The notes under the pieces are model-generated. The model worked only from the letters and a program-made list of their open reading frames with translations, did not search any database and was not told the DNA's origin. Below, piece after piece: positions 18,197 to 38,087 of a stretch of DNA of 64,000 bases. The position numbers and the translations under genes were made by a program. Origin of the DNA: a virus; the IMG/VR virus record IMGVR_UViG_3300023174_000058, positions 98,188-162,187 of that record. One strand, given 5' to 3'. The stretch's first letter is position 1, and each line of letters starts with the position of its first letter.

Positions 18197-18206
18197 ACTA
18201 TTTATA
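18197..18206 (+). promoter_or_regulatory. Putative phage late promoter (ACTATTTATA)
   Basis: Copy of the CTAHTTA motif found in most intergenic gaps. Confidence 0.65.
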
Positions 18207-19694: not shown

Positions 19695-21689
19695 ATGGCT
19701 AATCCATTAAAAATTTTAACACAGTTATCAGCAAGTGAAGCTGCTGAATTTATGAAAGAAGTTAAATTCAATGAAAAAATTACACTAGCTAACAAGAAAA
19801 TCGTTGGCCTAGCAGAAGGTACAGTAAACGGTGATGCAGTTCGTTATGAACAATTATCATCAGAGGCTTCATTACGCGTCTCAGGCGATTCATCACTAGC
19901 TTCACGCCTATCTGTTGAAGAATCAAACCGTGAAGTAGCAGTTAGCTTAGAAACATCAAACCGTATTTCTGCTGATAATTCGCTCTCATCACGTATTTCA
20001 TTAGAAGAATCAAATCGCGCTTCAGCTGATAGCTCAGTAAGTACTTCATTAACAAACCGTATTTCATCTGAAGAATCAACTCGTGCATCAGGCGATGTTT
20101 CACTAACAAATCGCGTTTCATTAGAAGAATCAACAAGAATATCCTTAGATGTTTCATTAACAAATCGTGTTTCATTAGAAGAGTCAACTCGTGCAGCTGC
20201 AGTTAGCGTTGAACAATCAGTCCGTGCATCAGCAGATATTTCATTAACTACTCGTTTATCAACAGAAGAAAGCAATTCACTTTCAGTTGATATAAGCCTC
20301 TCTAATCGTATATCAACCGAAGAATCAACACGTGCTTCAGCTGATGGTTCAATCGCAGTTGCTTTTGCTGCAGCTGATACGTCATTAACAACACGTCTTG
20401 GTAACGAAGAATCAACTCGTGCATCAGGCGATCTTTCCTTAACAAACCGTATTTCAACCGAAGAATCAGCTCGCGCAGCTGCAATTATTGCAGCAAATTC
20501 TTCTATTGATACTCGCGTTTCAAACGAAGAATCAGCCCGTGCGGAAGGAGATGTTTCATTAACAAATCGTATATCAACCGAAGAATCAACACGCGCTTCA
20601 GCTGATGGTTCATTAACAAATCGTGTTTCATTAGAAGAATCAACAAGAATATCCTTAGATGTTTCATTAACAAATCGTGTTTCATTAGAAGAGTCAACTC
20701 GTGCCTCATCTGATGTCTCATTAGCAACACGTCTTGGAAATGAAGAAACAGCAAGAGGAAGTGCTGATACCTCGTTAACAACCCGCGTTTCATTAGAAGA
20801 ATCAGTTCGCGCTTCAGCTGACGCAAGCATCGTAGTAGCACTATCAACCGAAGCACAAGCACGTATTGCGGAAGATCTACTCTTCCTCAAGCTTGATGGT
20901 TCACGCGCAATGACCGGCGATCTTAATATGGGTACAAAGAGCATTACAAATGCTAAGAGCGGTTCATTCTCGGGTGATGTTACAATTGCTGGTCAATTAA
21001 AGGTTCAAGGTTCATTAACTTACCTAGATACACAAAATCTAAAAGTTAAAGATAACCTAATTGAACTTAACGTTCCAGAAACTGGCGCAACAAGCAATGC
21101 AAATGCTGGTATCGTAATCAAGGGTAGCACCGCAAACAAAGACGTAAGCATGATCGTTGATACAGACGGCGGCAACCTTGTTGTTAACACCAAAGTCTCA
21201 GCTTCAGCGTTTGATGCAGCTGGTGCTGTTGATGTTGGCGGTGCATTAACAGTAGATGGACAAGCAACAATTAGCTCAGATCTATTTATCTCAGGTGCTT
21301 CATACGGCGCAGCGGATACAATGATTGGTTACTCTGGCGGAGTATACAACGTTGAGAGCATGCTACGCGTATTGTTCAACAGAGGCAACACAAGCGTTGA
21401 TGGTTATTCAAAACTACGCCACGTTGCAGAACCAAGCCTTGTTGGTGGTACACTCACCTACGCTCTACCAGAAACAGCAATGTTTGCTGATAGCCAACTT
21501 GGTAAGGTTATGGTTGACGTTCTAGTAGCTTCAGGCGGCGGTTGGAGCAACGATCTAATCGCAGTCAAACTAGAAGATAAGGGCAACGGCTATCTACAAA
21601 TTGTTATCGACGCTCCAGCCCACAACAACGGTAAAGTACGTATTATCGCTGTTAACGAAGGCATGGACCTAGAGACAGCTGGTCAATAA
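19695..21689 (+). CDS. Long coiled-coil fibre protein with 18-aa EESTRASAD.SL..R repeats
   Basis: 664 aa; repeats over about aa 55-390, then LKLDGSRAMTGDLNMG and LKVKDNLIELN fibre motifs; SD GGAGG; terminator downstream. Confidence 0.7.
   Translation: MANPLKILTQLSASEAAEFMKEVKFNEKITLANKKIVGLAEGTVNGDAVRYEQLSSEASLRVSGDSSLASRLSVEESNREVAVSLETSNRISADNSLSSRISLEESNRASADSSVSTSLTNRISSEESTRASGDVSLTNRVSLEESTRISLDVSLTNRVSLEESTRAAAVSVEQSVRASADISLTTRLSTEESNSLSVDISLSNRISTEESTRASADGSIAVAFAAADTSLTTRLGNEESTRASGDLSLTNRISTEESARAAAIIAANSSIDTRVSNEESARAEGDVSLTNRISTEESTRASADGSLTNRVSLEESTRISLDVSLTNRVSLEESTRASSDVSLATRLGNEETARGSADTSLTTRVSLEESVRASADASIVVALSTEAQARIAEDLLFLKLDGSRAMTGDLNMGTKSITNAKSGSFSGDVTIAGQLKVQGSLTYLDTQNLKVKDNLIELNVPETGATSNANAGIVIKGSTANKDVSMIVDTDGGNLVVNTKVSASAFDAAGAVDVGGALTVDGQATISSDLFISGASYGAADTMIGYSGGVYNVESMLRVLFNRGNTSVDGYSKLRHVAEPSLVGGTLTYALPETAMFADSQLGKVMVDVLVASGGGWSNDLIAVKLEDKGNGYLQIVIDAPAHNNGKVRIIAVNEGMDLETAGQ
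19855..20880 (+). repeat. Coding tandem repeat (mostly 54-nt unit) including an exact 80-nt duplication at 20115-20194 and 20625-20704
   Basis: Recurrent GTTTCATTAGAAGAATCAAC units; the two 80-nt blocks are identical and 510 nt apart. Confidence 0.85.
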
Positions 21690-21714
21690 TTAAAACTAAA
21701 ATAATTTAGTTTGG

Positions 21715-21743
21715 GGAGCGGAGAGAAATCTCCGCTCCTTTTT
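21715..21743 (+). terminator. Rho-independent terminator
   Basis: GGAGCGGAGA-GAAA-TCTCCGCTCC followed by TTTTT. Confidence 0.9.
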
Positions 21744-21761
21744 ATTTATCTTGTAAAACAT

Positions 21762-21771
21762 ACTATTTATT
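21762..21771 (+). promoter_or_regulatory. Putative phage late promoter (ACTATTTATT)
   Basis: Recurrent motif just after a terminator and upstream of the GT-like genes. Confidence 0.65.
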
Positions 21772-21790
21772 TTAGTTAAAGGAGCCGAAA

Positions 21791-22921
21791 ATGAAAAAAA
21801 TAAATATTGGTATCTCTGTTTTAATTAACAAACCAACAGAATCTTTCTTTACAAATGGTATAAGACAAAATGCGATCATAATGAAAGACCTTTATGAGAA
21901 AATAGATTTTGTTAATAAAGCTTATTATATAAATTTTGGAAAACAAAAAGATTATTCACAATCACCTTGGAAACAATATGAACGAAACATTATACAATTT
22001 GAAGAAATGTTTGATAAAATAGATGTTTTAGTCGTTTCTTGCGTAACGATTTCAAAAGAAATTGCTGATGCGGCAAAGAAAAAAGGCATTAAGCTTATAC
22101 ATCACATAATGGGAAATGAATATTACTCATACGTTGAAAGCGTTTTATTTAAAAAAGAAGAAAGCACTATACTAGCAAAAGAAGATTGGTATGACTCAGT
22201 ATGGATTTCTCCACACTTATATGAAATAAATAAAGATTTATTTGAAGCAATTTATGAATGTGATGCAAATGTTGGTGCATATGTGTGGTCACCACAATTT
22301 TTATTGGAACATGTGAATGCTTTATACGATACAAAAAAAATTAAAGAAAAAATCTATATTCCAAGCGATAAAAAACAAAAAAGAATTAATGTTTTTGAGC
22401 CAAATTTAAGTTTTATGAAAAATTCTATATTTCCGATTTTAATAGGTGAAAAACTAGAACTAAAACACCCAGAAATTTTTGATAGTTTAAATTTGTTTGG
22501 ATCAGACACAATAAAAGAAAAAAAACAATTAATAGATCTTGTAAAAACTTTAAAAATACAAAAAAATAAAAAAATCTTTTTTGAAGACAGATATCCTATT
22601 GCTTGGTCACTTTTTAATCATACGGACATTGTTTTATCTCATACGCATTATTGCGACTTAAATTATGTTTATTTTGATGCTGCTTGGCTTGGTTTTCCAT
22701 TAGTACACAATTCAAAGTTTATAAAAAAGCTCGGCTGGTATTATGAAAATTTTGATGCAGATGGAGCGATTAAGCAAATTAATAAAATAGCTAACACGTT
22801 TGACAAATTGCAGGTTAGAGAAAAATATCTAAAAGATTCGCAAAAGTTTATTTCTGATTATTTTCCAACACACGTCAAGAACGTTGAAGCATATAAAAAA
22901 TTATTAGAAAAACTATTTTAA
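21791..22921 (+). CDS. DUF2827-like protein (putative glycosyltransferase), paralog 1
   Basis: IGIS..FTNGIRQN, W.SPH, YVWSP.F, FEPN, LNYVYFDAAWLGFPLVHNS motifs. Confidence 0.6.
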   Translation: MKKINIGISVLINKPTESFFTNGIRQNAIIMKDLYEKIDFVNKAYYINFGKQKDYSQSPWKQYERNIIQFEEMFDKIDVLVVSCVTISKEIADAAKKKGIKLIHHIMGNEYYSYVESVLFKKEESTILAKEDWYDSVWISPHLYEINKDLFEAIYECDANVGAYVWSPQFLLEHVNALYDTKKIKEKIYIPSDKKQKRINVFEPNLSFMKNSIFPILIGEKLELKHPEIFDSLNLFGSDTIKEKKQLIDLVKTLKIQKNKKIFFEDRYPIAWSLFNHTDIVLSHTHYCDLNYVYFDAAWLGFPLVHNSKFIKKLGWYYENFDADGAIKQINKIANTFDKLQVREKYLKDSQKFISDYFPTHVKNVEAYKKLLEKLF

Positions 22922-22930
22922 AGGTTGATT

Positions 22931-24067
22931 ATGAAAAAAATAAATATTGGTATAACTTTATCTATAGATCCAACTGAATCTTTGTTTACTAATGGTATAC
23001 GACAAAACATTCTTATTCTTAGAGAATTATATGAAAAATGCGAAGGTGTAGAAAAATCTTACATTATTAATACATCTGGAAAAAGCATCCCAGACGATCC
23101 AAAATTGCCACTTTATCCTTTTAGAGATGTCATAATAGATATCAAAGATGTAGTTAAATATTGTAATTTTGTTGTTGTTGCCCACGGTTCTTTGTTGCCA
23201 GCAGAGTATCAAGAATTGTCAAAAGCAGGAATAAAAATAACTAAACTTATTCTCGGACCATCAGTTAGTATTTTTAACGAAGGAATACTTTTTAAAGGCA
23301 ATGATCAGCAACAAGGTAATTTTTATAGAAATAAAGGTAATGTTAGTAAAGTTTGGATGTCAAAACATTACTTTAAAGATAGATATTTTTTTGAAACAAT
23401 CTATGGATGTGAAGCAAAAATTGCACCATATGTTTGGGATCCACGATTTATAGAAAAAAGCTGTTCAGATTTCCAAAATAACAATAAAAAAATAGCAGAA
23501 TATATTCCAAGCGGTTTAAAAGAAAAAAGAATTGTTAATTTTGAGCCAAATTTAAATATGGTTAAGACTTCTACGCAATCTGTTGTAACTTTAGAAAGAT
23601 TTTATCGGCAACACCCAGAATATGTAGGAGATTGCTATTTTTTTAATACAGGCGTTATTAAGCAAAAAAAGGATTTTATTGATTTTGTAAAAGATTTAGA
23701 TATTTACGTTTCAAAAAAACTTTCTTTTGAGGGCGGGATTGCGATAGTAAATGCTTTAGGTAATTATGGAGATGTAGTTTTAGCTAGTCAAAATCAAAAT
23801 GAGCTAAATTATCTTTATTTAGATGCTGCTTGGATGGGATATCCAGTTCTACACAATTCAAGCATGATGAAAGAAATAGGATTTTATTATAAAGATAATG
23901 ATGCTCAACAAGCTTCAAAAATATTATATAATATATGCAAAAATTTTGATAAAAATTACAAAAAATATAAACAAGAATCAAGAGAAAAATGTAAAAAGTA
24001 TATGATTACAAACGAACAACATATAAAAAATTATACAAAACTTATACATGAAGTAATGGATTCTTAA
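22931..24067 (+). CDS. DUF2827-like protein (putative glycosyltransferase), paralog 2
   Basis: Same motifs: FTNGIRQN, YVWDP.F, FEPN, LNYLYLDAAWMGYPVLHNS; ATG at 22931 gives MKKINIGI, identical to the paralog start. Confidence 0.6.
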   Translation: MKKINIGITLSIDPTESLFTNGIRQNILILRELYEKCEGVEKSYIINTSGKSIPDDPKLPLYPFRDVIIDIKDVVKYCNFVVVAHGSLLPAEYQELSKAGIKITKLILGPSVSIFNEGILFKGNDQQQGNFYRNKGNVSKVWMSKHYFKDRYFFETIYGCEAKIAPYVWDPRFIEKSCSDFQNNNKKIAEYIPSGLKEKRIVNFEPNLNMVKTSTQSVVTLERFYRQHPEYVGDCYFFNTGVIKQKKDFIDFVKDLDIYVSKKLSFEGGIAIVNALGNYGDVVLASQNQNELNYLYLDAAWMGYPVLHNSSMMKEIGFYYKDNDAQQASKILYNICKNFDKNYKKYKQESREKCKKYMITNEQHIKNYTKLIHEVMDS

Positions 24068-24068
24068 A

Positions 24069-24278
24069 ATGAAGAAAAAAATTACATATTTAGTAAAATA
24101 TATGGATGATGTTATCAAAGAAGTATTAACGCATACAAAAGATATAAAAACTCAAGCAGAATTATTAAAAAATAGGCAAATGTTAGATGAAGCAATAAAA
24201 AAATTAGAAAAAAAATATGACAATATTATAAAAGACATACAAAACGATATAGAGGAAGAGCAAACGGATGAAAAATAG
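24069..24278 (+). CDS. Small hypothetical coiled-coil protein
   Basis: 69-aa K/E-rich ORF coupled to the GT-like gene. Confidence 0.45.
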   Translation: MKKKITYLVKYMDDVIKEVLTHTKDIKTQAELLKNRQMLDEAIKKLEKKYDNIIKDIQNDIEEEQTDEK

Positions 24279-24519
24279 TTTTAATTTTTTACAATTTACT
24301 AATTGGTTATTAATTTGTAGAGAAAATATTGGAAAAATAAAACAAGAAATTTTAGACGAAAAAATTACAAAGCAACAAGCAATTGAAAAATTATTAGCGG
24401 AAAAAAAAAGAATATCAATCTTAAAAGATGTTTTAGATAAAAAAGTCCGACTATTTGGTATTCAATCGCATTTTTTAAAGAATTTAAATGAGTTAAAAAA
24501 AAGATATGGAGTTGAATAG
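24268..24519 (+). CDS. Small hypothetical protein
   Basis: 83-aa ORF overlapping the previous gene, SD GAGG upstream. Confidence 0.45.
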   Translation: MKNSFNFLQFTNWLLICRENIGKIKQEILDEKITKQQAIEKLLAEKKRISILKDVLDKKVRLFGIQSHFLKNLNELKKRYGVE

Positions 24520-24522
24520 CAA

Positions 24523-24532
24523 ACTATTTATT
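24523..24532 (+). promoter_or_regulatory. Putative phage late promoter (ACTATTTATT)
   Basis: Recurrent motif. Confidence 0.65.
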
Positions 24533-24552: not shown

Positions 24553-26661
24553 ATGTCCACTGGCAATAGAAAACCGGTAAAAGTTTTGACCGATCTGCTT
24601 ACAAAAAAGCAGATCCTAAAAGAAGATTCTGACGGTAATATTCTTTTTAAAGTTTCTGGATCTCAAAATAATGGTATAATTAGTGCTTCTTTGCCAATAA
24701 CAGGTACTGATGCTTATTTTAATAATGATGTAACGATCGATGGAGTTTTACGAGCAAGTCAAATAGAAGTTACAACATTAATTAATTCGTTAAATTATGA
24801 AACTTCCATATCCGCTTCTATTAATGCGCTTTTAGACGTTTCAGCCTCTACGGCAGAAGTGGATCAATTTTTAAAATGGGATGGCTCACAATGGGTTCCC
24901 GGTAATGTTAATAATGGCTCAATAGGAGCAGCTGAGGATGGCGATTATACTGACGGTTTATTTACTGACTTTAATGATACCACGCCAGTTGGGACAGCTA
25001 TTGATAGAATAAATGAGGTTTTAAAAGGTCTAGCCCCCAAAGTTGCTCCCGATCTCACAAATTTAGAAAAAACATCCGGCGCAACTGGAACTAATATGCG
25101 TTTAGCTTTTGGTTCTTCATATTCGGTTGCAGGTTATACGAATGTCACTGCTTCAATTGGTGCAATATTATTAAATAAAGATTTTACGGAATCATTTACA
25201 ACTATTAATGGAAACGGCGGATATCCTATAAGACTAGGCGCGTATGCTACGCCTGTTGTCTTAACAATGTCGCTAAATAATAGTGTAGTATCAGACGCAG
25301 GAGCTTTTACAAATTATCCGGCTAAGTCTTTTAATGTTTCGCAAAATGGTATCGGAAATTATATTTTAGAAGTTAATGGCGTACAAATAAATCCAACTGG
25401 TTCTACAAATAATACAAGTTTAGCAAATACAGAAACTTTTGCATTATCATTGGCTAATACTGCTTCTTTTATAGGATCCGGTCAAGGATTTGATTTATTT
25501 AGGCATAGAACTGGAACTGTAGGAATTCCTACGTCCCTATGGCAAAATGGTCATAACTATGTAAAAGTCATTCATAGCTCTTCTCTTGGAACACACGTTA
25601 CCAACTATATAGATTGGGTTTATGATCCTTCGGCAGCATCTGGAGTTGATTCTTATAGTTTTACCACGCCAATTTCAGCTTCTTTTACGGCAACTGGAAC
25701 AAAACATCTATCTGGTATAAAATATTACACAAATATATCTTATAACTTTGCTACAACTGTTAGCAATTTCTTTAAAAATATATACCCAATTGCTGGTGGT
25801 TTAACTTTCAGTGGTTTAACATCAGGTTTAACTGTTAACAGCGTTACGATCCCAACTCCTACAACAAATCTTGATGATATCAATGTGAGTGTTGGACATA
25901 CATTTAATGGTGCATATAGGTTATTAGGTAGTTCGCTTGTGTCAACATTAAATTCTGCGAATGGTCTTGGAAAAGCTGGCTCTACTACATTAACAACCAA
26001 TACTATTCTTTATGACAACGTAAATACGGCAAATACGACAACAGCGGAAAATTTCTGCTTAGAAAATTATCGCGGTGAATCAGGTAGCTATGATACGCAA
26101 ACAGCAGCTTTAAATGCAATTGGGGCTTTCCCAAGCGGTTCTTCTTTAGGATCTAACGAATTGGCTGTTTATAATGATTCATTAAGATATCCAACCCAAA
26201 TCTTAAACGGTGGTAACGTTAGTGGATCCGGTATTGTCCATATGATTTCAGGGCAGCCAAACTATTCTTCAGCATCCGGTAATAGAACATATCATCGTAT
26301 CTTCCGCAATGGCTCAAGCTCTATAGCTGTATTTAATTTAGCAATTAATGGCGGAAGCGGTATTAATGTTGTACCTTTTGGCACAGCTTTAAACTCAAAC
26401 AACGTTCATGTATGGATCAAAATACCCGGAAAAACAGGCTGGCGTGATATAGCTACTGGTACCCCCGCCCCCGGCTATAGTGCCTTGGATAATAATTTAG
26501 GTGCTTTACAGGGTTCAAAAGTAACAACATCTACTTCTTCAACTCATACTATCAATTTATTAACCGAGGCGCTTGCTGTAAATGAATATTTTGTTTTAAG
26601 AATTGAAGCATCGGACGCTTGGACTAATAACATTGGTTCAATAACAATAACAGGATTGTAA
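24553..26661 (+). CDS. Virion fibre/appendage protein
   Basis: 702 aa, S/T/G/N rich; L.DV..QFLKWDGSQWVP fibre motif; own promoter motif and SD. Confidence 0.55.
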   Translation: MSTGNRKPVKVLTDLLTKKQILKEDSDGNILFKVSGSQNNGIISASLPITGTDAYFNNDVTIDGVLRASQIEVTTLINSLNYETSISASINALLDVSASTAEVDQFLKWDGSQWVPGNVNNGSIGAAEDGDYTDGLFTDFNDTTPVGTAIDRINEVLKGLAPKVAPDLTNLEKTSGATGTNMRLAFGSSYSVAGYTNVTASIGAILLNKDFTESFTTINGNGGYPIRLGAYATPVVLTMSLNNSVVSDAGAFTNYPAKSFNVSQNGIGNYILEVNGVQINPTGSTNNTSLANTETFALSLANTASFIGSGQGFDLFRHRTGTVGIPTSLWQNGHNYVKVIHSSSLGTHVTNYIDWVYDPSAASGVDSYSFTTPISASFTATGTKHLSGIKYYTNISYNFATTVSNFFKNIYPIAGGLTFSGLTSGLTVNSVTIPTPTTNLDDINVSVGHTFNGAYRLLGSSLVSTLNSANGLGKAGSTTLTTNTILYDNVNTANTTTAENFCLENYRGESGSYDTQTAALNAIGAFPSGSSLGSNELAVYNDSLRYPTQILNGGNVSGSGIVHMISGQPNYSSASGNRTYHRIFRNGSSSIAVFNLAINGGSGINVVPFGTALNSNNVHVWIKIPGKTGWRDIATGTPAPGYSALDNNLGALQGSKVTTSTSSTHTINLLTEALAVNEYFVLRIEASDAWTNNIGSITITGL

Positions 26662-34882: not shown

Positions 34883-34911
34883 TTGAATTCATATGTAGCT
34901 TGTAGTATACT
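34883..34911 (+). promoter_or_regulatory. Sigma70-type promoter for the Mre11-Rad50 fusion gene
   Basis: TTGAAT-17 nt-TATACT. Confidence 0.65.
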
Positions 34912-34943
34912 TGGCCCTGTTAGTAGCAGGGCCATTTTATTTT
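34912..34943 (+). terminator. Terminator-like hairpin overlapping the predicted transcription start
   Basis: TGGCCCTG-TTAGTAG-CAGGGCCA followed by TTTTATTTT. Confidence 0.6.
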
Positions 34944-34952
34944 GAGGTATCT

Positions 34953-37900
34953 ATGCCTAAAATCGCACATATAAGCGATACACACATTAAAACTCTAAAG
35001 CAACACGACGAATATAAAGAAGTTTTTGAAAAAATTTATAGCAAGTTAAAGCAAGAAAAAGTAGATTTTATTGTTCATACAGGGGATATCGCTCATACAA
35101 AAACACAAATCAGCCCAGAATTTGTTGATATATGTAGTCAATTTTTTACCAATTTAGCAGATATTGCACCATTACATATCATTCTTGGTAACCACGATGG
35201 AAATCTTCGTAATAGCAATCGACAAGATGCTATCTCTCCAATTGTTACGGCATTAAATAACCCTAGAATCAATCTTTATAAGAACAGTGGAGAGTATGTT
35301 GTCGATAGCACACTATCGTTTAACGTACTTAGTGTTTTTGATAAAGAAGGCTGGGTAAAGCCAAGTTCTCAGGATCGCATTAATATTGCTCTTTATCATG
35401 GTTCTATCAACGGTGTCATGACTGACACCGGTTACATTATTGAACACGGCGATGATGTTATCGATATTTTTGAAGGGCACGATTATGCTCTTCTTGGCGA
35501 TATTCATCTTGCTAATCAAATTGTAGACCCAGATGGCCGGATGCGTTATGCTGGTTCTACTATTCAGCAAAACTTTGGCGAAACCGATGATAAAGGTTTT
35601 CTTATTTGGGATATTAAAGACAAAGATATTTTTAATGTTGAGCATATTCGTATTCCAAACCCGAAACCTTTTATTACTATTGAGCTAGGTCTTGATGGTG
35701 AAATTGGAGATAGTGTTAGAGCATCAAAAGGCTCACGTATTCGTCTTATCGCACGCAATAATCTATCTGTCGATAAGGTTAAAAATGCTATTGATACTGC
35801 AAAAACGCGCTTCAAGCCTGAGAGCGTCACTTTTGTAAACAAAACGCTTGATAGTAAAGAAAATCTACAAGAGGTTTCGCGTCTTTCGCAAACTCTTAAC
35901 TTGCGTGACCTTTCTATTCAAGAAGAGCTTATTACTAGCTATTTAAAGGATTATAAGCCAGATAACGAAACTCTTGAAAAAATTTATGATATGAATAAAC
36001 GTTTTTCTTCTCAGGTAGAGCAAGGTGAAGAAGTAGCTCGTAATGTTAATTGGAAAATTAAATCACTTGAATGGGATAATCTTTTTAATTATGGTGAAGG
36101 CAACAAGCTTGATTTTGAAAAGCTTAATGGAGTTGTAGGTATATTTGGCAAAAATTATACAGGAAAATCATCTGTAATTGATTCTCTTCTTTATACTGTT
36201 TTCAATACAACTTCAAAAAACAATCGCAAAAATCTAAATATTATTAATCAAAATCGAGACAAAGGTCGTGGAAAAATTATATTTGATATTGAAGGTAATG
36301 AATATATTATCGAGAGAACAAGCGAAAAATATACAAAAAAGAGTAAAGGCGTAGAGACAGTAGAGGCAAAAACTGATGTTACGTTCAACACCGAAGGGGA
36401 CGAAGCCGTTTTTAATGGTTTGGACCGCAGTGATACTGATAAAAATATTCGCAGATTTGTTGGGACAATTGATGATTTCCTATTAACATCAATGTCTAGC
36501 CAACTTAATTCATTGGCTTTTATCGGTGAGGGCTCAACACAACGCAAAGCAATTCTTGCTAAGTTTCTTGATCTAGATATGTTTGAGGTCAAGTTTAAGC
36601 TAGCTAAGAGCGAGGCAGCTGAAATTAAAGCTGTATTAAAAAAATTAGAAGGGACTGATTTTGAAGCGCAAATAACTGCTGCCAAATTAGCTATTCAGTC
36701 TAATGAAAATAATATTTCTACTACGAAATCTGAACTAGCATCATTGCAAGACAACCTTAAAAAACTACAAGAAGAATTATTAGATATATCTTCTTATTTG
36801 CGTAACATTAAAAAAGATCAAGGTAACTTAACTGACATTTACGCTATTATGGCGCAGCATCAATCTATCAGTGATAATTGTACAAAACGTATTACAGAAT
36901 TAGATAAAAAGATTGAAGAATTAAATATAAAAAAATTAGAAACATCTAAAAAACTAAACATTGATTATGACGCCTTATTGTCAAGACGAGAAGAATTAAA
37001 AAATAAAAATGATCAATTTACGCAGCTTATTAGTGAATTCAATCTAATAAAAAAATCAATACTTGATCTTGAACGTGATAGCAAAATTCTTGATGAAGTC
37101 CCATGCGGTGATGAATTTCCATCTTGCAAATTTATTAAGAATGCCTTTGAATCAAAATCTGAACTACCAGAGTTTAAAGTTAAACTTGTCCAACTAACAA
37201 AAGAAAAAACAGAATTAGAAAAGTCTATTGAAGAATTTAAAATAATAGAAGATAGCATTAATACTTATAAGAATAATCAAGTGTTGTTGGATAAATTACT
37301 TATTCTTCAAAAAGATCTTTTACTCGAACGTGAAAAAACTGTAACAAAACAAAATGCTGCTCGTGATACAGTTGAATCATGCCGAGAGCGCTATGAAGTG
37401 CTTAAGATACAATCTCAAGAAAATTCTGAATTGTCATCTAAGATTGATCGTGAAAAAGAATTAAAAATTCTTATTAATGATAATGAAATGAAGTTAAATT
37501 CATTGCAACAAAAAATTACAGGATTTTATAAAGAAAGCGGCTATCAAATATCAACACTTGAGACGCTTGAGGAACAGCAATTAGAACTAGCGGAAAGACG
37601 TAAAGAATTTGCAGCGTATGATCTATACTTGAAAGCAATGCATCCAAACGGTATCTCTTACCAAGTCATTAAAAATAAACTACCAGTTATCAATTCTGAA
37701 ATCAATAAACTTCTCGCTAACGTAGTAGATTTTAGCATATTTCTTGTAAATGATGACGATAAGCTAGATATTATGATTAAACATCCAAAATATGACGCTA
37801 GACCACTAGAAATGGGAAGTGGGGCTGAGAAATCATTAGCTTCGATTGCTATTCGTTTAGCTTTTTTAAACGTTACATCTTTACCAAAATGTGATGTTTT

Positions 37901-38087
37901 TGTGTTAGATGAACCGGGAACAGCATTAGATAACGATAATCTAGCTGGTTTTATTCGTATCCTAGAACTAATTAAGGGTAGCTTTAAGACCGTACTCCTT
38001 ATTTCGCACCTTGACGCGCTTAAGGACACAGTCGATATGCAAATTAATATTGATCGACAAGGTAACTTTGCTTTTGTAAATCAATAG
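34953..38087 (+). CDS. Fused Mre11/SbcD nuclease - Rad50/SbcC ATPase (T4 gp47-gp46 fusion)
   Basis: HISDTH, TGDIAH, GNHD, YHG and LGDIH phosphoesterase motifs, then Walker A GKNYTGKSS, a coiled coil, signature-like MGSGAEK, Walker B VLDEPG and ISH; ATG at 34953 has SD GAGG. Confidence 0.9.
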   Translation: MPKIAHISDTHIKTLKQHDEYKEVFEKIYSKLKQEKVDFIVHTGDIAHTKTQISPEFVDICSQFFTNLADIAPLHIILGNHDGNLRNSNRQDAISPIVTALNNPRINLYKNSGEYVVDSTLSFNVLSVFDKEGWVKPSSQDRINIALYHGSINGVMTDTGYIIEHGDDVIDIFEGHDYALLGDIHLANQIVDPDGRMRYAGSTIQQNFGETDDKGFLIWDIKDKDIFNVEHIRIPNPKPFITIELGLDGEIGDSVRASKGSRIRLIARNNLSVDKVKNAIDTAKTRFKPESVTFVNKTLDSKENLQEVSRLSQTLNLRDLSIQEELITSYLKDYKPDNETLEKIYDMNKRFSSQVEQGEEVARNVNWKIKSLEWDNLFNYGEGNKLDFEKLNGVVGIFGKNYTGKSSVIDSLLYTVFNTTSKNNRKNLNIINQNRDKGRGKIIFDIEGNEYIIERTSEKYTKKSKGVETVEAKTDVTFNTEGDEAVFNGLDRSDTDKNIRRFVGTIDDFLLTSMSSQLNSLAFIGEGSTQRKAILAKFLDLDMFEVKFKLAKSEAAEIKAVLKKLEGTDFEAQITAAKLAIQSNENNISTTKSELASLQDNLKKLQEELLDISSYLRNIKKDQGNLTDIYAIMAQHQSISDNCTKRITELDKKIEELNIKKLETSKKLNIDYDALLSRREELKNKNDQFTQLISEFNLIKKSILDLERDSKILDEVPCGDEFPSCKFIKNAFESKSELPEFKVKLVQLTKEKTELEKSIEEFKIIEDSINTYKNNQVLLDKLLILQKDLLLEREKTVTKQNAARDTVESCRERYEVLKIQSQENSELSSKIDREKELKILINDNEMKLNSLQQKITGFYKESGYQISTLETLEEQQLELAERRKEFAAYDLYLKAMHPNGISYQVIKNKLPVINSEINKLLANVVDFSIFLVNDDDKLDIMIKHPKYDARPLEMGSGAEKSLASIAIRLAFLNVTSLPKCDVFVLDEPGTALDNDNLAGFIRILELIKGSFKTVLLISHLDALKDTVDMQINIDRQGNFAFVNQ

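Follow-up and report, generated by a model that had tools for sequence, protein, structure and literature searches.

The 64-kb stretch of DNA analyzed here (the window) is the last part of a 162-kb viral record (IMG/VR record IMGVR_UViG_3300023174_000058) that is 89% complete, and it carries two adjacent genes of the uncharacterized protein family DUF2827 within a tail-fibre module. The sole sequencing run containing the stretch is a lake-water metagenome. As genes for the large terminase, portal, major head protein, sheath and tube are all present in the window, the phage can be classified as a myovirus.

Layout of the DUF2827 cassette

The two DUF2827 genes are arranged in tandem on the plus strand. 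The first (positions 21791–22921) encodes P0001, a protein of 376 amino acids (aa), and the second (22931–24067) encodes P0002, which comprises 378 aa when read from the ATG at 22931. While a TTG at 22925 is the listed start for the latter gene, the ATG is the likelier one, because it is preceded by AGG and yields the same N-terminus, MKKINIG, as that of P0001. Upstream and on the same strand resides a gene (19695–21689) for a Ser-rich fibre protein of 664 aa, the candidate acceptor discussed below, with about 16 repeats ahead of a C-terminal domain of about 260 aa. Its transcript appears to end at an intrinsic-terminator-like hairpin with a T-run (21713–21740, plus strand). The hairpin has a 12-bp stem with seven G-C pairs, scores best among all terminators between 15 and 31 kb of the window and is also found on L003, the most closely related contig, ahead of the DUF2827 pair there. 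It is followed by a copy of the motif ACTATTTAT (21762–21770), located 21 nt before the start of the P0001 gene. On the other side, the pair is trailed by two small open reading frames (ORFs; 24069–24519, plus strand) for Lys/Glu-rich products of 69 and 83 aa, which are conserved at 83% and 78% in L003 and did not match any family in Pfam and PHROG searches. The next plus-strand ACTATTTAT copy (24523–24531), 22 nt before the following gene, closes the cassette. The DUF2827 pair and the two small ORFs form a unit with terminator and motif on one side and a motif on the other.

This arrangement agrees largely with an original prediction made from the DNA letters, which had described two tandem paralogs sharing FTNGIRQN, YVW.P.F, FEPN and NY.Y.DAAW.G.P..HNS (all four are indeed found in both translations), placed behind a terminator and their own copy of a structural-gene promoter motif. 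It had also placed the pair between fibre genes. This holds on the upstream side, where the product of 19695–21689 has helical repeats and weak matches to tail-fibre proteins. The plus-strand gene on the downstream side (24553–26661) specifies an S/T-rich protein of 702 aa that returned neither a Pfam nor a PHROG match. Orthologs of this protein occur on contigs L003, L073 and L074, where they adjoin fibre and DUF2827 genes, and its composition and the modules that it shares with its neighbours suggest that it is a further fibre or baseplate-distal protein. The GC content of the cassette (22001–24000) is 27.6% with a GC skew of +0.15, compared with about 40% GC for the fibre gene before it (20001–22000). 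The difference may stem from the Ser/Ala-rich coding of the fibre gene or from a separate origin of the cassette.

The motif ACTATTTAT occurs six times in the window (2.3 copies expected), at positions 18197, 21762, 24523, 47268, 50560 and 55900. All six copies are on the plus strand and intergenic, and they precede structural genes or genes within structural modules. In the whole record, 95% of which is coding, 13 copies are present on the plus strand and none on the minus strand, mostly 6–51 nt ahead of gene starts. Genes of the head, neck and tail modules share the motif: other copies include one before a head-closure gene and one before the gene directly preceding that for the major head protein. 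A one-base variant, CCTATTTAT, lies ahead of the tail tube gene. The T4-type sequence TATAAATA shows no strand bias in the genome (18 versus 16). Judging from this distribution, ACTATTTAT is a candidate late-promoter element distinct from TATAAATA of T4, and a late, structural-type promoter driving the cassette is a reasonable reading. Because the cassette is bounded by the terminator and two motif copies of the structural-gene type, the enzymes are probably made together with virion proteins.

Family, fold and predicted pairing of P0001 and P0002

P0001 and P0002 share 36% identity from end to end (BLASTP E value 4e-75), and no further DUF2827 genes were found when the whole record was searched. 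As the original prediction had proposed from the motifs, both proteins belong to DUF2827 (PF10933). With a gathering score of 25 bits and a full-length match as the membership cut-off, P0001 scored 263 bits (E value 4.7e-78) and P0002 240.9 bits (E value 2.4e-71), each covering profile positions 1–362 of 362. Seventeen residues are invariant among 29 family sequences with identities down to 24%, including a block formed by N291, Y294, P303, H306 and N307. All 17 are present in both P0001 and P0002, which implies a conserved active site in the two paralogs. In some DUF2827 relatives the domain is fused to GT2, GT25, DXD sugar-binding, PLOD-GT or methyltransferase domains, and such fusions imply a role in building glycans. 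No PHROG family matched either protein. In a tree with 136 members, P0001-type and P0002-type genes form sister clades and each clade includes genes from other phages, so that the duplication must be old.

A GT-B glycosyltransferase (GT) fold had been suggested for the pair, and this is what structural comparison revealed: two Rossmann-like beta/alpha/beta domains and a C-terminal helix that crosses back. The closest solved folds include TarM, WaaG, PimA and BshA, and SdgB and the GtfA/GtfB complex are also among the structural matches. At the place that corresponds to the E-x7-E motif of GT4 enzymes, DUF2827 proteins carry N-Y-x-Y-x-D-A-A-W-x-G-x-P-x-x-H-N. The likeness of DUF2827 to GT4 is one of fold only.

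Modelling of the P0001–P0002 complex resulted in a score of 0.88 in each of three runs, while the best of three controls reached 0.00. In the benchmark for this score, 58 of 80 solved complexes attained that mark, as did two of 110 mismatched pairs. At least 91% of the contacts were common to the runs, and the predicted local distance difference test (pLDDT) value of the partner was at least 90. The predicted interface is pseudo-symmetric, i.e., equivalent segments of both chains are involved. The complex model thus predicts that the two proteins pair. Dimers are known among GT-B enzymes and, since P0001 and P0002 are paralogous, the predicted contact may represent a homodimer interface of the family that is also used in phages with a single copy. 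The latter are the majority: among 80 viral loci centred on DUF2827, 69 have a single gene and 11 a tandem pair. The original prediction had two enzymes adding successive sugars; the paralogs are instead predicted to form a dimer, and the complex model neither supports nor contradicts such a division of labour.

The neighbouring fibre and gene linkage in phages and bacteria

The repeats of the upstream fibre protein follow the consensus D-x-SL-x-x-R-[IV]-S-x-EES-x-R-x-S-x-D. They are spaced by 18, 22, 29 or 11 residues, all sums of 7 and 11 in the style of coiled-coil rods. Ser and Thr account for 32% of residues 50–400, and an AlphaFold2 model of the monomer places residues 46–401 in two long helices (the model is of low confidence, with a pLDDT of 48, and secondary structure alone was used). 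Pfam searches yielded no match at E ≤ 0.01. Weak tblastn matches link the repeats to annotated tail-fibre or host-specificity proteins of a few cultured phages. Three further proteins of the cluster share the C-terminal domain, the look-alikes of which in the ESM Atlas are unnamed viral proteins. The tripeptide SL[ST] is present 14 times in the fibre, compared with 2.3 expected copies. All other proteins of the window have it at most twice, and all other ORFs of the genome at most three times. Many bacterial adhesins (see below) are likewise enriched in SL[ST]. Yet only 22 of the 80 phage loci contain a protein with at least five copies, and the enrichment is not seen in all fibre homologs, so that SL[ST] is put forward as a lead only for a shared sequon.

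DUF2827 relatives are encoded on at least 208 IMG/VR stretches among 2.9 million contigs. Among 50,697 deposited phage genomes, tblastn with P0001 did not find the family, and a megablast search with the 8-kb region returned zero matches. When a homolog was defined by E < 1e-10 to the repeat region, 41 of the 80 DUF2827-centred loci were found to contain one, 33 of them within 3 kb and 22 within 300 nt. Two gene orders are represented. In 13 loci the fibre gene is followed by a co-directional DUF2827 gene, and in 10 the DUF2827 gene is convergent on the fibre gene. The fibre-adjacent DUF2827 genes belong to at least three deep phage clades of the 136-member tree, the members of which are only 25–33% identical to P0001. 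A search for related loci with the single fibre protein retrieved 12 loci. To approach the link from the side of the fibre, a degenerate DNA pattern representing two repeat units was used, which matched 111 viral stretches, and the distinct records whose fibre match was strong (tblastn E ≤ 1e-40) were counted. Of these 25 records, 16 encode DUF2827 (one of these genes being cut by the contig end), against a background of about 208 hits in 2.9 million contigs. The nine others are fragments with an estimated completeness of 32% or less. Complete genomes with weak repeat matches alone do not have DUF2827. The linkage persists through rearrangement and deep divergence, which argues for functional coupling of the two genes. 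This conserved connection of DUF2827 to an upstream phage fibre gene is new here.

A comparable connection has been described for bacteria, where arrays of two to three DUF2827 genes abut genes for trimeric autotransporter adhesins (TAAs) in Burkholderia, Veillonellales and Pasteurellales (bioRxiv 10.64898/2026.01.22.700529). In our re-check of 36 bacterial DUF2827 loci, two- or three-copy arrays adjoin genes for very large S/T-rich proteins. Seven of these large neighbours were tested for domains, and all seven have YadA-type head, stalk or anchor domains, some together with ESPR; YadA_anchor was above the Pfam cut-off in five, just below it in one and absent from one. The adhesin stalks consist of 'SLST' repeats with 55–67% Ser+Thr and periods of 14, 18, 25 and 32. 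The Ser period of the phage fibre is 18 and obeys the same heptad/hendecad arithmetic. Both settings thus have in common the Pfam family, a cytoplasmic location, a GT-B-like fold and tandem paralogs abutting a gene for a long periodic Ser/Thr-rich fibre, and in both settings the function is a predicted one. They differ in that the phage pair is not adjacent to a TAA: its neighbour is tail-fibre-like, has helical Ser-rich repeats, lacks a Pfam match and is devoid of ESPR, YadA head and membrane anchor. The repeats differ as well, D-x-SL-x-x-R-x-S-x-EES-x-R in the phage versus SLST-type in bacteria.

Candidate acceptor and alternative roles

The explanation that we favour, with modest confidence, is that the DUF2827 pair constitutes late-expressed, dimeric protein O-glycosyltransferases acting on the fibre rod. 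P0001 and P0002 would be cytoplasmic GT-B (GT4-like) enzymes, encoded by a separate cassette inside the tail-fibre module, probably produced together with virion proteins and predicted to pair via their pseudo-symmetric interface. Host nucleotide-sugars would most likely be the donors, and Ser/Thr hydroxyl groups on the Ser-rich helical rod encoded by 19695–21689 would receive the sugars before or during fibre assembly, such that the resulting virion would bear glycosylated fibres. Fold and invariant residues suggest that both proteins are catalytically active, and the gene neighbourhood points to the fibre as the protein acceptor. The O-linkage, the donor sugar and the timing are, like an effect on adsorption, stability or protease resistance, inferred.

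Known systems provide analogies for such a role. GtfA/GtfB and SdgA/SdgB, which O-glycosylate adhesins of Gram-positive bacteria, likewise are cytoplasmic paired paralogs of the GT-B/GT4 type, encoded beside an adhesin gene and acting on many repeat Ser targets; for the phage pair these features are predictions. They differ from DUF2827 in that there is no detectable sequence relation, and their acceptor is a disordered serine-rich repeat (SRR) or SD region, whereas the candidate here is a helical-repeat fibre. The likeness would therefore be one of mode of working and not of membership. To our knowledge, virion glycosylation by phage enzymes is documented in a few actinobacteriophages only. 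Glycosyltransferases encoded by mycobacteriophages are reported to modify virion structural proteins (Freeman et al. 2023, cited in PMC12582341). Phage-encoded enzymes would act on virion structural proteins here too; in the actinobacteriophages they reportedly belong to other GT families and modify capsid and tail-tube subunits, while the present case would concern a DUF2827 enzyme, a fibre rod as candidate acceptor and an uncultured freshwater myovirus.

Several observations weigh against glycosylation of the fibre. DUF2827 has no biochemically characterized or solved member. Single-sequence and profile searches against PDB sequences returned chance-level matches only, the Glycos_transf_1 profile (PF00534) gave no match at E ≤ 1, and the canonical GT4 E-x7-E motif was not detected. 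Enzymes acting on wall teichoic acid, lipopolysaccharide (LPS), small molecules or, as glucosyltransferases, on DNA all lie within three Z units of the top fold match; hence, the fold cannot tell the acceptor. The timing of the cassette is read from the promoter-like motif. Genes of the same module can stay linked by descent alone, and shared descent contributes to the pattern. At least one near-complete genome has its fibre homolog more than 10 kb away from DUF2827. Finally, 14 loci of the P0002-type clade place DUF2827 behind genes for a Peptidase_M15 protein and a phage lysozyme, and no coiled-coil fibre homolog was found in their flanks (up to 10 kb per side, less at contig ends). Through the fibre linkage across divergent phages and the adhesin linkage in bacteria, the context argument for a virion protein as the acceptor, as originally proposed, has become considerably stronger, though it does not extend to these 14 loci.

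In a different proposal, the target during infection would be the host envelope: P0001 and P0002 would modify one of its glycans, such as capsule, LPS or O-antigen, peptidoglycan or a teichoic-acid-type polymer, or a precursor of it, which could block superinfection or keep progeny from re-adsorbing to lysing cells. TarM, WaaG, PimA and BshA among the nearest solved folds would fit such a role, as would the 14 loci with endolysin-type neighbours, and the same genome contains a 13-kb cluster of sugar-nucleotide and GT genes that could serve it. We nevertheless regard this as unlikely, since it would not account for the way in which DUF2827 genes repeatedly and closely adjoin members of a single fibre family, in either of two gene orders, nor for the link to bacterial TAAs. 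Moreover, lysis genes commonly neighbour fibre modules anyway, no tyrosine integrase (PF00589) was found, which makes classic lysogenic seroconversion improbable, and in other near-complete phages the sugar cluster and DUF2827 are not found together. The idea that the two travel together had to be discarded because epimerase genes are missing from two near-complete DUF2827 phages, while a phage lacking DUF2827 has three of them. The cluster itself (L242:2400-15519, corresponding to G000:C1:72400-85519) is located about 13–26 kb before the start of the window. It comprises genes for two GDP-mannose/dTDP-glucose dehydratase-like proteins, RmlC, an RmlD-like protein, a DegT aminotransferase, WbqC and a methyltransferase, as well as for a hexapeptide acyltransferase, two GT1 and three GT2-type enzymes, a GH130-like protein, a PhyH dioxygenase and a cytidylyltransferase. 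Unusual donor sugars could come from this cluster.

The tight linkage to the fibre gene, the predicted pairing of the paralogs and the GtfA/B complex among the structural matches would also be compatible with proteins that have the GT fold but little or no catalytic activity and assist fibre assembly as chaperones by binding the Ser-rich rod; GtfB has such a role for GtfA in SRR adhesin systems. We consider this improbable, given that all 17 invariant residues are kept in both paralogs, that most phages have a single copy and that fused relatives with other GT domains speak for enzymes that build glycans. Glycosylation of phage DNA for evasion of restriction, in the manner of the alpha- and beta-glucosyltransferases of T4, is most improbable. 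The alpha-glucosyltransferase of T4 acts on hydroxymethylcytosine in DNA, whereas a hydroxymethyl-base pathway was not found here: the thymidylate-synthase/dCMP-hydroxymethylase family (PF00303) is absent from the 89%-complete 162-kb record, while the control was positive in ten of 14 genomes. A Tet_JBP match was likewise not obtained in the genome, although the control was equally silent in this case. Furthermore, the genes reside in a fibre module behind a structural-type motif and not among genes for nucleotide metabolism, bacterial members of the family adjoin adhesins, and DUF2827 was found in none of the 50,697 deposited phage genomes, among which are phages with glucosylated DNA.

Glycosylation of the tail fibre would have direct consequences for host recognition, fibre stability and exposure to antibodies and proteases. 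The comparative evidence provides an uncharacterized Pfam family with a concrete candidate acceptor, the 18-residue repeat, and ties DUF2827 to two unrelated kinds of fibre, one from phages and one from bacteria. The family was not found in the deposited phage genomes searched, yet at least 208 contigs from viral metagenomes carry it, and it may be used by a whole group of environmental phages. A broader generalization, to which we give somewhat less credence than disbelief, would see DUF2827 as a dedicated O-glycosylation family for Ser-rich periodic rods of trimeric surface fibres, i.e., as one enzyme-acceptor module serving bacterial TAAs, the tail fibres of a large group of uncultured phages and possibly fibrils of giant viruses. 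Glycosylated tail fibres would then be frequent among environmental phages.

With regard to the latter, a contig labelled as a giant-virus metagenome-assembled genome (MAG; L125:11-1354, IMGVR_UViG_GVMAG-M-3300001352-47_000001) has 15 matches to the fibre-repeat pattern and a tblastn E value of 8e-79. In BFVD, the viral protein structurally most similar to P0001 is A0A7L9AXF5, an uncharacterized protein of Pyramimonas orientalis virus 01B (TM 0.84, 20% identity). Enzyme and repeat may therefore also occur in Nucleocytoviricota. DUF2827 was further noted on short MAG contigs labelled as Bifidobacterium breve (L218), Prochlorococcus (L241) and Flavobacteria (L224 and L240). These look like phage or misbinned DNA; on L218, the DUF2827 gene is split and immediately preceded by a homolog of the fibre repeat.

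Additional proteins were observed near DUF2827 in other phages. In some of the lysis-context loci, a variable beta-rich protein is encoded in between. Inserted between the genes for Peptidase_M15 and lysozyme that precede DUF2827 in this subgroup is a gene for a variable protein that begins with a conserved MFFY sequence (e.g., L009:7164-9374, L018:7725-9374, L012:8102-9379 and L014:1705-2697), and its length and sequence vary among otherwise syntenic contigs. A protein of about 190 aa with a sub-threshold DnaJ match is encoded immediately ahead of DUF2827 in 13 loci and at most three genes away in 25 (e.g., L029:9429-10004, L036:9417-9992 and L062:9447-10004). It may be a further partner. Elsewhere in the window, an ORF of 1058 aa (34911–38087) combines an SbcD-like N-terminal with an SbcC-like C-terminal match and appears to encode a fused SbcCD protein.

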